Shown in pieces: positions 7,618-43,839 of a stretch of DNA of 64,000 nt (positions are counted from its first letter, which is position 1; every line of letters starts with the position of its first letter). The notes under the pieces are model-generated. The model was not told the origin of the DNA, did no database searches, and saw only the letters and a program-made list of their open reading frames with translations. Position numbers and translations under genes: made by a program. Origin of the DNA: Escherichia phage vB_EcoM-G28. The stretch is from the sequence record NC_054916.1. One strand, 5' to 3'.

Positions 7618-9183
7618 ATGACTATCAAAACTAAAGCTGAACTTTTGAACAAATGGAAGCCATTACTGGAAGGTGAAGGTTTACCGGAAATTGCTAATAG
7701 CAAACAAGCGATTATCGCTAAAATCTTTGAAAACCAGGAAAAAGATTTCCAGACAGCTCCGGAATATAAAGACGAAAAAATTGCTCAGGCATTCGGTTCT
7801 TTCTTAACAGAAGCTGAAATCGGTGGTGACCACGGTTACAATGCTACTAACATCGCTGCAGGTCAGACTTCTGGCGCAGTAACTCAGATTGGCCCAGCTG
7901 TTATGGGTATGGTACGTCGTGCTATTCCTAACCTGATTGCTTTCGATATTTGCGGTGTTCAGCCGATGAACAGCCCGACCGGTCAGGTATTCGCACTGCG
8001 CGCAGTATATGGTAAAGACCCAATCGCTTCCGGTGCTAAAGAAGCATTCCACCCAATGTATGGTCCAGATGCAATGTTCTCTGGTCAGGGTGCTGCTAAG
8101 AAATTCCCGGCGCTGGCTGCTAGCACAGAAACCACAGTAGGTGATATCTATACTCACTTCTTCCAGGACACTGGTACTGTGTATCTGCAGGCTTCTGCTC
8201 AAGTAACAATTAGTGCAAGCGCAACTGATGCAGCTAAATTAGATGCTGAAATTAAGAAACAAATGGAAGCTGGTGTACTAGTAGAAATCGCTGAAGGTAT
8301 GGCTACTTCTATCGCTGAACTTCAGGAAGGTTTCAACGGTTCTACCGATAACCCATGGAATGAAATGGGCTTCCGTATCGATAAACAAGTTATCGAAGCT
8401 AAATCTCGCCAGCTGAAAGCTGCTTACTCTATCGAATTAGCACAAGACCTCCGCGCTGTTCACGGTATGGATGCTGATGCTGAACTGTCTGGTATTCTGG
8501 CTACCGAAATCATGCTGGAAATCAACCGTGAAGTTGTTGATTGGATTAACTACTCAGCTCAGGTTGGTAAATCTGGTATGACCCTGACTCCGGGTTCTAA
8601 AGCTGGTGTATTTGACTTCCAGGATCCGATTGATATTCGTGGTGCTCGCTGGGCGGGTGAATCCTTTAAAGCTCTGTTGTTCCAGATTGACAAAGAAGCA
8701 GTTGAAATTGCTCGTCAGACCGGTCGTGGTGAAGGTAACTTCATTATCGCTTCCCGTAACGTAGTTAACGTTCTGGCTTCAGTTGATACTGGCATTTCTT
8801 ATGCTGCACAGGGTCTGGCTACCGGCTTTAACACTGATACTACCAAGTCAGTATTTGCTGGCGTTCTGGGTGGTAAATACCGTGTATATATCGACCAGTA
8901 TGCTAAACAGGATTATTTCACTGTAGGTTATAAAGGTCCGAACGAAATGGATGCTGGTATTTACTATGCTCCATATGTAGCTCTGACTCCGCTGCGTGGT
9001 TCCGATCCGAAGAACTTCCAACCAGTAATGGGATTCAAAACTCGTTACGGTATCGGTATCAACCCATTTGCAGAATCCGCTGCTCAGGCTCCGGCTTCTC
9101 GCATCCAGAGCGGTATGCCTTCTATTCTGAATAGCCTTGGTAAAAACGCTTACTTCCGCCGTGTATATGTTAAAGGTATCTAA
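7618..9183 (+). CDS. 23: Major capsid protein gp23
   Basis: 521 aa; N-terminal propeptide-like region; synteny. Confidence 0.95.
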   Translation: MTIKTKAELLNKWKPLLEGEGLPEIANSKQAIIAKIFENQEKDFQTAPEYKDEKIAQAFGSFLTEAEIGGDHGYNATNIAAGQTSGAVTQIGPAVMGMVRRAIPNLIAFDICGVQPMNSPTGQVFALRAVYGKDPIASGAKEAFHPMYGPDAMFSGQGAAKKFPALAASTETTVGDIYTHFFQDTGTVYLQASAQVTISASATDAAKLDAEIKKQMEAGVLVEIAEGMATSIAELQEGFNGSTDNPWNEMGFRIDKQVIEAKSRQLKAAYSIELAQDLRAVHGMDADAELSGILATEIMLEINREVVDWINYSAQVGKSGMTLTPGSKAGVFDFQDPIDIRGARWAGESFKALLFQIDKEAVEIARQTGRGEGNFIIASRNVVNVLASVDTGISYAAQGLATGFNTDTTKSVFAGVLGGKYRVYIDQYAKQDYFTVGYKGPNEMDAGIYYAPYVALTPLRGSDPKNFQPVMGFKTRYGIGINPFAESAAQAPASRIQSGMPSILNSLGKNAYFRRVYVKGI

Positions 9184-9199
9184 GATATAACCTTATTAT

Positions 9200-9217
9200 G
9201 GGAGACTTCGGTCTCCC
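9200..9217. terminator. Stem-loop (UUCG loop) between gene 23 and the convergent small ORF
   Basis: gggagac-ttcg-gtctccc, can serve both convergent transcripts. Confidence 0.6.
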
Positions 9218-9232
9218 ATTCTTGTTTCTATA

Positions 9233-9499
9233 CTACGCAATCTTAACTCGACGGTTGATGATGTCACGGAAGTCAATACGATTTTCTTGGATTTTCAGCC
9301 AGTTACCAGATTTGTCTTTGGTATGGGTAGAATATTCACCGTTCCACCAGAAGTCAGTAGCATAAGCCATGGTTTCATATTTCTTAACTAGGGCATTCAC
9401 TGCATTACCGTTAGGATTGGAACCATATTTTTCTACCAGGGCTTTGATGTCTTTATCAAGAGCGGACAGAGTAGTACGAATAAAGTTTAACTTGTTCAT
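9233..9499 (-). CDS. Hypothetical 88-aa protein, antisense to the late head genes (the ORF track extends it to 9514)
   Basis: ORF with GAGGAG Shine-Dalgarno before the ATG at 9499 and its own early-type promoter; no recognisable motif. Confidence 0.55.
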   Translation of the reverse strand: MNKLNFIRTTLSALDKDIKALVEKYGSNPNGNAVNALVKKYETMAYATDFWWNGEYSTHTKDKSGNWLKIQENRIDFRDIINRRVKIA

Positions 9500-9529
9500 T
9501 TTTAATCTCCTCATGTTTTTGATAGGTCT

Positions 9530-9559
9530 ATAGTAACATGTGATAACCTTGCTGTAAAC
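9530..9559 (-). promoter_or_regulatory. Sigma70/T4 early-type promoter for the 88-aa ORF
   Basis: Minus strand reads GTTTACA, a 17-nt spacer, then TACTAT. Confidence 0.45.
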
Positions 9560-9565
9560 AACTTT

Positions 9566-9573
9566 TATAAATA
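9566..9573 (+). promoter_or_regulatory. T4-type late promoter for gene 24
   Basis: Exact TATAAATA about 30 nt upstream of the ATG. Confidence 0.6.
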
Positions 9574-9601
9574 AACATATACTCTCAACAAGGAAAGCGC
9601 A

Positions 9602-10885
9602 ATGGCTAAAATCAACGAACTTCTGCGCGAATCAACCACAACGAATAGCAACTCAATCGGTCGCCCAAATCTCGTTGCTTTGACTCGCGCTACCACTAAA
9701 TTAATATATTCTGACATTGTAGCAACGCAAAGAACTAATCAACCTGTTGCTGCTTTTTATGGTATTAAATACCTTAACCCAGATAACGAATTTACATTTA
9801 AAACTGGTGCTACTTACGCTGGCGAAGCTGGGTATGTAGACCGAGAACAAATCACAGAATTAACAGAAGAGTCTAAATTAACTCTCAATAAAGGCGATTT
9901 ATTCAAATATAATAATATCGTTTATAAAGTATTAGAAGATACACCATTTGCTACCATTGAAGAAAGCGATTTAGAATTAGCTCTTCAGATTGCAATTGTT
10001 CTTTTAAAGGTTCGTCTATTTTCTGACGCAGCGTCAACGAGCAAATTTGAAAGCTCTGATAGCGAAATTGCGGATGCTAGATTCCAGATTAATAAATGGC
10101 AAACCGCAGTTAAATCTCGTAAACTTAAAACTGGCATCACAGTTGAATTAGCACAAGATTTAGAAGCAAATGGATTCGATGCTCCTAATTTCTTGGAAGA
10201 TTTGCTTGCAACTGAAATGGCGGATGAAATCAATAAAGATATTCTACAGTCTTTGATTACAGTGTCAAAACGCTATAAAGTTACAGGAATTACTGATACT
10301 GGATTCATTGATTTGAGTTATGCATCTGCACCTGAAGCTGGTCGTTCATTATACCGAATGGTATGTGAAATGGTTTCACATATCCAAAAAGAATCAACTT
10401 ATACAGCAACGTTCTGTGTTGCTTCAGCTCGTGCTGCTGCGATTCTTGCTGCATCAGGTTGGTTAAAACATAAACCAGAAGATGATAAATATCTTTCACA
10501 AAATGCCTACGGGTTCTTAGCTAATGGTTTACCGCTTTATTGCGATACTAACAGCCCATTAGATTATGTAATCGTTGGCGTGGTAGAAAATATTGGCGAA
10601 AAAGAAATTGTTGGATCAATTTTCTATGCTCCGTATACAGAAGGTCTTGACTTAGATGACCCTGAACATGTAGGTGCATTTAAAGTTGTAGTTGATCCAG
10701 AAAGTTTGCAGCCATCTATCGGTTTATTGGTTAGATATGCTTTATCTGCAAATCCTTACACTGTAGCAAAAGATGAAAAAGAAGCAAGAATAATTGATGG
10801 TGGAGACATGGATAAAATGGCGGGTCGTTCAGATTTGTCTGTTTTATTAGGTGTTAAGCTACCAAAAATTATCGTTGATGAATAA
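9602..10885 (+). CDS. 24: Head vertex protein gp24
   Basis: 427 aa; synteny and size as T4 gp24. Confidence 0.9.
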   Translation: MAKINELLRESTTTNSNSIGRPNLVALTRATTKLIYSDIVATQRTNQPVAAFYGIKYLNPDNEFTFKTGATYAGEAGYVDREQITELTEESKLTLNKGDLFKYNNIVYKVLEDTPFATIEESDLELALQIAIVLLKVRLFSDAASTSKFESSDSEIADARFQINKWQTAVKSRKLKTGITVELAQDLEANGFDAPNFLEDLLATEMADEINKDILQSLITVSKRYKVTGITDTGFIDLSYASAPEAGRSLYRMVCEMVSHIQKESTYTATFCVASARAAAILAASGWLKHKPEDDKYLSQNAYGFLANGLPLYCDTNSPLDYVIVGVVENIGEKEIVGSIFYAPYTEGLDLDDPEHVGAFKVVVDPESLQPSIGLLVRYALSANPYTVAKDEKEARIIDGGDMDKMAGRSDLSVLLGVKLPKIIVDE

Positions 10886-12497: not shown

Positions 12498-13916
12498 TTA
12501 TGGATAGGTATAGATGATACCAGTTTCTAAAGCAGTTTTATGAATGATGTATCCATTACGCGATTCTTGAACATCAACTTCCGGATAGTCTTTCATCATC
12601 TTCTGAAGGGTGTAACGATGCAGGTAATATTTACTATCTGGATCGTCAGTTTTCCAATCTTTACCTTCTTCAGTCATTTTTTGGATTTCATCCATAACCC
12701 ACCAACCGCACCAGATGTAAGCTGAAGTACGGTGTGGAAGAGGATGAACATAAGGCAATTCACCTTCTGGTTCCGGAGCAACTTTATCAGTCACTTGAAC
12801 TTGACCTGTTGTTTTAACTGTTTTGCTATCATAATCAGTTGCTGCAACGACAGCAGTAACTTCAATAGTTTGACTTCCAACAGATGAGGTATCGACAGTA
12901 TATACGTTAGTTGACCCTTCTACAGGAGAAGAATCTTTCTTCCACGAGTAAGTAATTTGTGCTTCTTCTGGAGCATCCGTAACATTAGCAGTAAATGTAG
13001 CCGAAGCATCTTGCTGAACGTTAATAGAAGGAGGAGTCAATGTAACCTGTGGATTCATTGTCTTCTTATTAACTGTCAATGATACTTCATTAGAAGTAAC
13101 TTCCTTTTCATTGTAATTTTCTGCTGTTACTTGGGCTACGCATTTAATTCTTTTTACTCCACTTGTAGTTGGAGTATAGCTAAATGTAGAGCTAGTTTCT
13201 CCACCAACTTGTGAATCATCTACATACCACTGATACGTAGCAGATGCTCCATCAGGTTGAGAAGCTAAGGCAGCAGTAAATTGAACTGGGGTTCCAATTA
13301 CTCCAGCTGAAGGACTAGCAGGAGTTACTGCCAATGTAGTTGTCTGTGTCTTTTTATTAACAGTCAGTGATACTTCATTAGAAGTAACGGTTTTTTCATC
13401 ATAATTTGTCGCGGTTACTTGAGCTACACACTTGATTTTTTTAACTCCGCTTGCGGCAGGAGTGTAATTGAATGTAGCAGAAGTCGCTTCGTCTACAGGA
13501 GAACTGTCAACGTACCATTGATACGTAGCAGATGCACCTGATGGCTGCGAAGCTAAAGCAGCGGTAAATTTAACAGCTGTTCCAATTACTCCTGCTGGAG
13601 GACTATTGGGAGTTACGGCTAAGGTAGTCGTCTGAGTTTTGTTTTTGACTGTGATAGTTGTAGTAGCTTCTGCTGTTTCAGCATCAGTATCTGGAACTGT
13701 GTTTGTTGCAACTACTTTAATAGTCTTTTGACCGGCAGGTCCTTTTAGTACATAACTAAAAGTTGCTTCAGCTCCATCCTGTGGAACATCGTCTACAGTC
13801 CAAGCATAGGTAATAGTTCCACCTCCAGTTTCACCACTGGGTGTAGCAGTAAACTGCTGAGTCTGATCTATAACTCCAGTAGGTGTTTTAGGAGTTATAT
13901 CAACTGTAAAAGCCAT
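12498..13916 (-). CDS. hoc: Hoc (highly immunogenic outer capsid protein), extended to 472 aa
   Basis: Ig-like domain repeats plus C-terminal capsid-binding region; T4 Hoc is 376 aa as I recall. Confidence 0.85.
   Translation of the reverse strand: MAFTVDITPKTPTGVIDQTQQFTATPSGETGGGTITYAWTVDDVPQDGAEATFSYVLKGPAGQKTIKVVATNTVPDTDAETAEATTTITVKNKTQTTTLAVTPNSPPAGVIGTAVKFTAALASQPSGASATYQWYVDSSPVDEATSATFNYTPAASGVKKIKCVAQVTATNYDEKTVTSNEVSLTVNKKTQTTTLAVTPASPSAGVIGTPVQFTAALASQPDGASATYQWYVDDSQVGGETSSTFSYTPTTSGVKRIKCVAQVTAENYNEKEVTSNEVSLTVNKKTMNPQVTLTPPSINVQQDASATFTANVTDAPEEAQITYSWKKDSSPVEGSTNVYTVDTSSVGSQTIEVTAVVAATDYDSKTVKTTGQVQVTDKVAPEPEGELPYVHPLPHRTSAYIWCGWWVMDEIQKMTEEGKDWKTDDPDSKYYLHRYTLQKMMKDYPEVDVQESRNGYIIHKTALETGIIYTYP
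13064..13640 (-). repeat. Tandem, diverged duplication of a ~96-codon Ig-like domain inside hoc
   Basis: Two consecutive protein blocks KTQTTTLAVTP...SNEVSLTVNK are near-identical; the DNA copies are diverged. Confidence 0.75.
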
Positions 13917-26328: not shown

Positions 26329-26382
26329 TCCTCATGTTATGTCAGTAAGATTATTATAACACAACACGAGGGACTTGTAAAC
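26329..26382 (-). promoter_or_regulatory. Early promoter plus leader module (54 bp) identical to the one upstream of alc
   Basis: Minus strand carries GTTTACA, a 17-nt spacer, TATAAT and a GAGGA Shine-Dalgarno; same 54-mer at 41844..41897 and 42195..42248. Confidence 0.6.
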
Positions 26383-40992: not shown

Positions 40993-41342
40993 TTAGAAAG
41001 GTCCTGGATGTCTTCTGCGAACTTGTTGAAGGAGTTGTTGATTTGTTTTTCAACCAATCCTGGCTTATGAGCCACCACATCCGCCTTCTTTGCATCTTTG
41101 CGCAGTTTTTCATTTTCACGCTCAATAGCAGCAATTGCCTCACGATTTTTATTATTCATCGCATCAATATAATTATACTGAATTCGCAAATTATTTAATG
41201 CTAAAGCGTTTTCATTGGCTGTTTTTGTAATTTCTGCAACAGACGTTTCTAATCTTTCTACCTTATTTTTTAAAATAATAGATGTTCCGCCAAATGCTAT
41301 TACAAGTAATAGCAATCCAGCTGTAAAATTACTTACATGCAT
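40989..41342 (-). CDS. Inner-membrane spanin (T4 pseT.3 equivalent)
   Basis: 117 aa; N-terminal transmembrane helix then predicted coiled coil; directly upstream of the lipoprotein ORF. Confidence 0.7.
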   Translation of the reverse strand: MHVSNFTAGLLLLVIAFGGTSIILKNKVERLETSVAEITKTANENALALNNLRIQYNYIDAMNNKNREAIAAIERENEKLRKDAKKADVVAHKPGLVEKQINNSFNKFAEDIQDLSK

Positions 41343-41839
41343 AAAGTTTTAATAACCTCTATAATATCGTCTTGAGAAAGACCGTTAATTAAAATATGAT
41401 GTTCAGCTGGAGATTTAGAAATTTTAAAGCATGCCTCAACATCTTCTGCCATATCCGATGCACTACGATTTGGATTACTAATTCCAAGACGATGTTTTCC
41501 CGTCAAAGGATTAACGATGATGTAGCATTTACAGCTATTAATGTGAACATTAGGTTGAGTCTGATTAATGAACACATCACAATCATATTTCGCAAGCTGA
41601 TTTTCTAAAAAGACTTTCATCTCCTCAACCGCATCAGGAAGCATATCACGGGCTTGCTCAAGACGACGATTTCGATATTCTTTGATGGTCGTTTTCCGCT
41701 TAACTTGCTTAGCTAAATCTTTCTTAAGATCGGTGATATATCCAACTCGACGATTTCCTTTGAATACAGAAATCCCATCTGTAGTATCACCGTATGCTTC
41801 AACGACCATCTCAGTAGTAATAAGCTGCAAATCCATCAT
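41333..41839 (-). CDS. alc: Alc (host transcription shut-off protein)
   Basis: 168 aa; position between rnlA and the pseT block as in T4. Confidence 0.75.
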   Translation of the reverse strand: MMDLQLITTEMVVEAYGDTTDGISVFKGNRRVGYITDLKKDLAKQVKRKTTIKEYRNRRLEQARDMLPDAVEEMKVFLENQLAKYDCDVFINQTQPNVHINSCKCYIIVNPLTGKHRLGISNPNRSASDMAEDVEACFKISKSPAEHHILINGLSQDDIIEVIKTLCM

Positions 41840-41843
41840 AAAG

Positions 41844-41897
41844 TCCTCATGTTATGTCAGTAAGATTATTATAACACAACACGAGGGACTTGTAAAC
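41844..41897 (-). promoter_or_regulatory. Early promoter plus leader module for alc (copy 1)
   Basis: Identical 54-mer to 26329..26382. Confidence 0.6.
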
Positions 41898-41903
41898 AGC
41901 TTA

Positions 41904-42190
<287 letters not shown>

Positions 42191-42194
42191 AAAG

Positions 42195-42248
42195 TCCTCA
42201 TGTTATGTCAGTAAGATTATTATAACACAACACGAGGGACTTGTAAAC
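42195..42248 (-). promoter_or_regulatory. Early promoter plus leader module, duplicated copy
   Basis: Third identical copy of the 54-mer, inside duplication copy 2. Confidence 0.55.
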
Positions 42249-42251
42249 AGC

Positions 42252-43839
<1,588 letters not shown>

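Follow-up and report, generated by a model that had tools for sequence, protein, structure and literature searches.

The gap between genes 23 and 24 of Escherichia phage vB_EcoM-G28 (NC_054916.1), analysed here within a stretch of 64,000 nucleotides that we refer to as the window, is occupied by an 88-aa ORF running on the minus strand from 9499 to 9233. Gene order is 21, 22, 23, the 88-aa ORF (minus strand), 24, rnlB, 24.2, 24.3 and hoc, with the last four lying on that strand as well. Across the site, a probe of 601 nt was 100% identical to Escherichia phages GEP001, EP01 (labelled Tequatrovirus), KIT06 and HZ_ZJUN4, and gene 23 was identified from the major capsid annotation of relatives that are 100% identical over this probe, which spans its 3' end. 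The features of the locus are as follows.

7618..9183, plus strand: gene 23, major capsid protein (521-aa ORF; late gene; left neighbour)
9198..9219, both strands: hairpin, predicted gene-23 terminator (terminator scan and folding)
9233..9499, minus strand: 88-aa ORF, phrog_6003 (ORF list, family HMM, AlphaFold2, dN/dS)
9507..9512, minus strand: Shine-Dalgarno sequence GAGGAG (from the sequence; GGAG conserved)
9530..9558, minus strand: predicted early promoter, σ70-type (promoter scan; consensus from PMC4122927; hexamers conserved)
9566..9573, plus strand: late promoter TATAAATA of gene 24 (motif; conserved; annotated as a predicted late promoter in fPS-90)
9602..10885, plus strand: gene 24, capsid vertex protein (427-aa ORF; annotation of relatives; late gene; right neighbour)

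Coding evidence and protein family

The ORF listing gives the minus-strand frame as 9233..9514, which amounts to 93 aa when counted from its first ATG. The 88-aa product begins at the ATG at 9499..9497 and ends at the stop codon at 9235-9233 (minus strand), and this ATG is both the annotated start in all relatives (267-nt CDS) and the sole start conserved across the family. It is preceded by a GAGGAG Shine-Dalgarno sequence at 9512..9507 (minus strand), 7 nt 5' of the ATG, with GGAG kept at the same distance in all T4-like relatives; the opposite-strand ORF of 88 aa with a GAGGAG site that the initial annotation had described was recovered at these positions. The 93-aa start at ATG 9514..9512 was rejected, as it lacks a ribosome-binding site, overlaps GAGGAG and is in-frame but non-conserved in relatives. 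Two plus-strand ORFs, at 9198-9365 (55 aa) and 9369-9533 (54 aa), overlap the gene and are unsupported shadow ORFs.

The 88-aa ORF is a genuine protein-coding gene under purifying selection. Codon-aligned pairwise comparisons, taken from unsaturated pairs (dS < 0.6), gave dN/dS values of 0.03-0.14, and tblastn matched the protein to about 236 phage or T-even records. The phrog_6003 family HMM matched over the full length of the protein (E 5.8e-50, residues 1-88 on profile positions 1-88 of 90), which places it in that family. To our knowledge phrog_6003 has no assigned function, and its orthologues are all annotated as 'hypothetical protein'. Orthologues with the same position, strand and length include JS98 orf173 (YP_001595302), SP18 gp189 and RB69ORF188c/189c (34-99% identity), and the residues invariant across the family (K3, F6, G31, N32, N35 and Q71) include an (N)GNxxN motif.

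Beyond these orthologues the family is small. An exhaustive profile search returned 10 hits among 1.84 billion representatives, and an IMG/VR scan for the family returned known T4-like genomes only. Two giant repeat proteins among the hits (P0022, E 1e-15; P0024, E 9e-8) were rejected as summed-repeat artefacts after re-scoring revealed 9-11 near-identical Ig-like repeats at 2-12 bits each, with per-domain E above 1e4. Three distant homologues were retained, one in the Vequintavirinae record ABPH49, one on a contig of small same-strand ORFs of which one is T7 0.6-like, and one on a contig with a GpJ-like tail gene and a DEAD-box helicase gene. Inspection by eye revealed, in all three, a σ70-like hexamer pair upstream (spaced non-canonically in ABPH49) and a hairpin rich in G+C beyond the stop codon, and from these signals the family appears to behave as a stand-alone promoter-ORF-terminator unit.

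Structure prediction, which had been proposed as a check on the ORF, yielded a confident AlphaFold2 model (mean pLDDT 94) of α-α-β-β-α topology, with helices at 3-25 and 31-48, a β-hairpin at 52-61 / 67-71 and a last helix at 77-87. Superposition on an independent BFVD model, made for a homologue with 40% identity, gave a TM of 0.90. Neither fold nor sequence similarity outside its own family was found in Pfam, PDB or BFVD. Searches of Pfam, NCBIfam and PADLOC with the protein and family members gave sub-threshold matches only (DUF5380 at E 0.085, DUF4859, Ca_bind_SSO6904 and NsnC), a sequence-profile search of the PDB gave nothing below E 0.2, and in PADLOC the window protein and P0010 had no match and P0021 and P0023 chance-level matches only. 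The literature searched by locus tags and PHROG id likewise returned no match. The homology search that had been suggested for this protein was accordingly fruitful in revealing its family and without a functional match in Pfam, PDB or PADLOC, and the earlier impression of a protein without a recognisable motif persisted through the Pfam, NCBIfam, PADLOC and PDB searches. The protein itself is of 10.3 kDa, basic (pI 9.6), hydrophilic and soluble; pI is 9.4-9.7 in 6 of the 7 homologues tested and 8.0 in P0021, cysteine is absent and hydrophilicity extends throughout, with no stretch hydrophobic enough, by eye, to form a signal peptide or membrane segment. Charge and hydrophilicity would suit a protein that binds nucleic acid or an acidic partner in the cytoplasm.

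Transcription signals around the gene

The predicted promoter lies on the minus strand, with a -35 hexamer TTTACA at 9558..9553, a 17-nt spacer and a -10 hexamer TACTAT at 9535..9530, the latter extended by TG at 9538..9537 (TTTACA-17-TG-T-TACTAT overall). It is an exact match to TTTACW-N17-TAYWAT, the consensus given for early promoters in the PST/T4 pair by Comeau et al. (2014, PMC4122927), and has the form of T4 early promoters, which often carry TG, at a suitable distance upstream of the ORF. We counted 9 sites with this consensus in the window, where shuffled sequences would give 0.5; 8 of the 9 are on the minus strand, to which alc, rnlA and other early genes belong, and in most of them a TG precedes the -10. 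Comparison across relatives revealed that the spacer has fully diverged, yet the -35, the 17-nt spacing, the TG and the -10 are retained, with TTTACA as the -35 (TGTACA in the P0017 contig) and TACTAT, TATTAT or CATAAT as the -10. Transcription is predicted to start near 9523 on the minus strand. On that strand we found no late promoter TATAAATA near the 88-aa ORF, and inspection of the promoter region by eye revealed no MotA box of a middle promoter.

The late promoter of gene 24 stands back to back with the early promoter's -35, and its AT-rich DNA occupies the position expected for the early promoter's upstream AT-rich element. The motif TATAAATA is conserved: all locus variants have it immediately beside the -35, and in phages with an empty site it comes straight after the terminator. 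We infer that the 88-aa ORF is expressed early, because the promoter matches the consensus exactly, because its hexamers and spacing are conserved despite diverged spacers, and because an orthologous T4 promoter precedes segD, a gene of the early class. The early-type promoter at 9530..9559 that the initial annotation had proposed was correctly placed (TTTACA-17-TG-TACTAT, exact consensus), and its description of an early gene inside a late structural cluster gains support from the promoter match, the conservation and the class of T4 segD.

Downstream of the ORF lies the hairpin at 9198..9219, with a G+C-rich stem (ATGGGAGAC-TTCG-GTCTCCCAT) and a UUCG loop, which folds at about -15 kcal/mol on both strands (z -3.9 / -3.75) and was the single strong terminator-like hairpin of the terminator scan, on the plus strand at 9198-9219. 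The plus-strand tail after it is T-rich (TCTTGTTTCT, 9220-9229), and the minus-strand tail is AUAAUAAGG, without a U-tract. The stem is preserved through compensatory changes in T4, BMB16, SP18 and VR25; in the Gapriverviruses SP18 and VR25, U-tracts flank the hairpin on both sides, and in JS09 and P0017-type loci it likewise lacks a U-tract in the ORF direction. By these sequence features the hairpin would be the intrinsic terminator of gene 23, canonical in the gene-23 direction only, and would serve as the 3'-end hairpin of the ORF's transcript, whose exact end is uncertain because the hairpin has no U-tract in that direction. The shared bidirectional terminator that had been proposed here therefore stands as a hairpin common to both genes and falls as a canonical terminator for the ORF, given the AUAAUAAGG tail with no U-tract. 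Rfam revealed no RNA families across the whole window.

States of the gene 23/24 junction and the segD locus of T4

Measured with a 2.4-kb probe, the region is about 335 bp shorter in most Tequatroviruses than in the window, and about 390 bp longer in T4 and T6. The aligned gene 23/24 junctions fall into four states, namely empty, ORF, ORF plus segD, and segD alone. In the empty state (BMB16, fPS-90) the hairpin is followed directly by TATAAATA; the window, JS98, SP18 and JS09 carry the ORF only; F2 and LF82-1 carry the ORF followed by a segD-like GIY-YIG gene that begins 3 nt after the ORF stop; and T4 has segD alone. Most Tequatroviruses have the empty site and lack the 88-aa ORF. The antisense position between genes 23 and 24 was common to all T4-like carriers examined, namely JS98 (orf173), JS09 (whose copy is annotated as similar to RB69ORF188c), LF82-1, SP18, VR25, SQ17 and two metagenomic contigs (30-57% identity). 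The carriers belong to the Dhaka-, Gapriver-, Mosig- and some Tequatroviruses, with identity as low as 30% in metagenomic contigs. Downstream of the ORF, gene 24 is present as two tandem paralogues in JS98-type phages (JS98, L001 3451-6015) and in two relatives from metagenomes (L010 and L012), against one copy in the window.

Identity along the locus is mosaic. Genes 23 and 24 of the window are 96-99.7% identical to those of the empty-site Tequatrovirus BMB16 and 64-88% identical to those of JS98, and the intervening segment at 9190-9565 (hairpin, ORF and promoter) is 96.6-100% identical to JS98, with switch points at about 9150-9190 (gene 23 3' end) and about 9566-9601 (gene 24 leader). The window thus holds a JS98-type (Dhakavirus) cassette in a Tequatrovirus backbone, the whole unit having passed from one genus to another by recombination where the ends of the capsid genes are conserved.

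Some copies are broken. In 310Ecol104PP the gene is disrupted by a 10-bp duplication and a 10-bp deletion (L008 506-700), and in the RB69 reference a +1 and a -1 frameshift split it into RB69ORF189c and RB69ORF188c (L029 6292-6532), which may be real decay or old sequencing errors. These broken copies indicate that the 88-aa gene is dispensable, and its lack in most Tequatroviruses together with repeated breakage implies that any benefit is conditional or small. Poor conservation with frameshifts in relatives had been named beforehand as what would speak against the gene; the sequence is conserved (dN/dS as above), and frameshifts or breaks do occur in RB69 and 310Ecol104PP. The broken copies, the insertion/deletion polymorphism and the occupation of the same site by segD in T4 are points beyond the initial annotation.

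The nearest named neighbour of the window locus is the T4 segD locus. T4 segD sits at the same 23/24 site, antisense, behind an orthologous promoter (TTTACA-17-TATTAT; L005 1254-1282, minus strand; NC_000866), and the two loci share their site, orientation, flanking hairpin and back-to-back early and late promoters. They differ in payload, which in T4 is a 220-aa GIY-YIG nuclease unrelated to the 88-aa protein: T4 and F2 SegD match the SegE_GIY-YIG Pfam family, whereas a Pfam search of the 88-aa protein found no GIY-YIG catalytic domain, with DUF5380 at E 0.085 as the only match. A 2010 review reported that no segD-specific promoter had been found and expected vanishingly low transcript levels (PMC2988022). 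Time-resolved omics supplements for T4 class segD as early RNA and middle protein, with SegD peptides rising from the first time points (PMC9697503), and together with the alignment these data argue against a promoterless, barely transcribed T4 segD. When read from its second ATG (MKYLIYQ), T4 SegD aligns with F2 SegD from residue 1 at 59% identity, and this ATG occupies the position of the ORF's ATG relative to the promoter; the annotated T4 segD start is probably 3 codons too long. From its sequence T4 looks like an ORF-plus-segD ancestor after loss of the ORF.

A probable mobile early cassette, its alternatives and related systems

We consider it fairly probable that the locus is a self-contained early cassette, a hairpin-to-promoter unit that is movable by recombination, carries a conditionally useful accessory factor and has at times served as a platform for segD. 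On the minus strand its order would be early promoter, GAGGAG, 88-aa ORF and hairpin, flanked by the terminator of gene 23 and the late promoter of gene 24. Within minutes of infection, as the promoter and its T4 orthologue suggest, host RNA polymerase carrying σ70 would initiate minus-strand transcription near 9523, and an mRNA of about 300 nt would be translated into the 10.3-kDa basic, presumably cytoplasmic α-α-β-β-α protein of phrog_6003. The transcript would end at, or be stabilised by, the hairpin held in common with gene 23. T4 early promoters are switched off before late transcription, and that of the cassette would fall silent with them, ahead of the convergent late transcription that reads genes 23 and 24. 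The cassette would move by recombination in the flanking capsid genes, its protein being helpful in some hosts and dispensable in others; in some lineages it would act as an expression platform for a segD gene just downstream of the ORF, and in T4 segD would have come to stand in place of the ORF behind the same promoter. The protein most likely acts as an early accessory factor through binding to a protein or nucleic acid of the host (E. coli/Shigella), and we propose such a target because of its size, charge, timing and patchy distribution. The host-takeover or anti-defence role raised by the initial annotation stands as a conjecture, as the Pfam, PDB, PADLOC and fold searches gave no match in its favour.

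An extended form of this explanation, which we put forward tentatively and regard as unlikely, is that the 88-aa protein founds a fold-orphan family of early effectors directed against an E. coli/Shigella host process or defence, with the cassette as an ancestral platform that segD invaded. If true, it would explain the early transcription of T4 segD, long thought promoterless.

Several other readings compete with the cassette. The ORF might encode a helper, immunity or DNA-binding partner of SegD, or be the leftover of a homing element, as could be suspected from F2, LF82-1, IME08 and ATK47-type phages, in which a segD-like gene without a promoter of its own begins 3 nt after the ORF stop on the same strand, and from T4, where segD fills the ORF's exact slot behind the same promoter. 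We think this distinctly improbable, since most sampled carriers (JS98, SP18, VR25, JS09 and the window) have the ORF without an endonuclease gene, no endonuclease is annotated next to the distant homologues of other phage types, and T4 SegD works without the ORF; a simpler view is that segD landed in, and uses, a pre-existing cassette. A slighter chance still attaches to RNA as the main product, with the ORF secondary, whether as an antisense transcript into gene 23 ('anti-late RNA') or as transcription opposing read-through from gene 23 to 24. Early 'anti-late' transcripts are known in T4, the hairpins of the window, JS09 and P0017-type loci lack a U-tract in the ORF direction such that read-through into antisense gene 23 would be possible, and the promoter survives in T4 despite the changed payload. 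However, purifying selection acts strongly on the protein sequence, the ribosome-binding site is conserved, the predicted fold is confident and most Tequatroviruses lack the cassette altogether, and the true bidirectional terminator predicted in SP18 and VR25 would block such read-through.

The location between genes 23 and 24, kept in every T4-like carrier, could also suggest a head-morphogenesis or capsid accessory protein, as the head cluster has hoc and inh on the minus strand nearby. This we hold to be very improbable, given an early-type promoter with no late promoter on the minus strand, homologues in other phage types that lie among small early-region ORFs and not head genes, and close relatives with near-identical capsid genes that lack the ORF. 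This genome is AT-rich and has many antisense ORFs of 40-130 aa, which is what would make a chance ORF with chance signals conceivable at all; its probability is next to nil, because dN/dS is far below 1, the 236 homologues are syntenic, the promoter and ribosome-binding site are conserved and the structural model is confident. We regard the feature as an optional, mobile early accessory-gene cassette of an ordinary kind.

By analogy, such a cassette would work like two described kinds of unit, the early cassettes of unknown-function ORFs known as PeSLs and the morons of lambdoid phages. As in PeSLs (Arbiol et al. 2010, PMC2839356; Comeau et al. 2014, PMC4122927), the locus has a strong σ70 early promoter with AT-rich upstream DNA ahead of an ORF without an assigned function, a stem-loop terminator by which late virion genes are insulated, and an association with insertion/deletion differences between close relatives. 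Unlike in PeSLs, promoter and stem-loop are separate here, with about 300 nt between them; the stem-loop, placed at the ORF's opposite end, is the likely terminator of gene 23 itself, and 9500-9601 contains no stable hairpin that could form the composite stem-loop. The exchange breakpoints also fall in the flanking capsid genes and not in repeated PeSL motifs, and the promoter sequence of the ORF is unique in the window. Strict PeSL membership was rejected on these two grounds, namely a stem-loop not composite with the promoter and exchange via flanking genes. Like a moron, the locus has its own promoter and a 3' hairpin (non-canonical in the ORF direction), lies between genes that are adjacent in relatives and is dispensable. 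Unlike for a moron, the window phage is virulent, with no prophage expression, and composition is not deviant (GC 0.373 for the insert, 0.397 for the ORF and 0.363 for the window); strict moron membership was rejected because nucleotide composition is not distinct from that of the window.

At the level of the protein, T4 provides small early proteins that act on host targets, among them AsiA, Alc, Ndd, Arn and Dmd. The 88-aa protein resembles these in its class of about 10 kDa, its early σ70 promoter, its non-essentiality and its patchy distribution, and differs from them in having no sequence or fold match outside its own family in Pfam, PDB or BFVD.

More than 200 genomes already list the 88-aa gene as 'hypothetical protein', and it is in that sense an ordinary phage accessory gene. 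What the locus offers is a clean natural example of a hairpin-ORF-promoter unit of about 375 bp moving between T-even genera, at one site found in empty, filled, endonuclease-invaded and endonuclease-only states, together with a small, confidently modelled family without a fold relative. For T4 segD it also provides a concrete candidate early promoter and a start codon that probably corrects the annotated one. A possible host-range or anti-defence role could readily be probed in naturally occurring isogenic-like pairs, in which one phage carries the gene and the other lacks it.

Elsewhere in the window, a 54-nt promoter-plus-leader module (GTTTACAAGTCCCTCGTGTTGTGTTATAATAATCTTACTGACATAACATGAGGA) is repeated at 26353-26381, 41868-41896 and 42219-42247 (minus strand) before different ORFs, in resemblance to the repeated PeSL-type regulatory cassettes of T4-type phages. 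The rnlA-alc junction contains a perfect 300-nt direct repeat (41696-41995 and 42047-42346, at 351-nt spacing) that duplicates the rnlA 3' end, an early promoter and the 5' part of alc, leaving a 63-aa truncated alc copy (42002-42190) upstream of the full 168-aa alc (41336-41839). The rnlA-alc span is 351 nt shorter in all 15 of the related records listed, out of 497 matching, none of which matched at >=99% identity, and the duplication looks specific to this genome or an assembly artefact. Finally, the Hoc-like ORF at 12498-13916 (minus strand) encodes 472 aa, against 376 aa (1131 nt) in T4, and its internally repeated Ig-like segments suggest an extra decoration domain.
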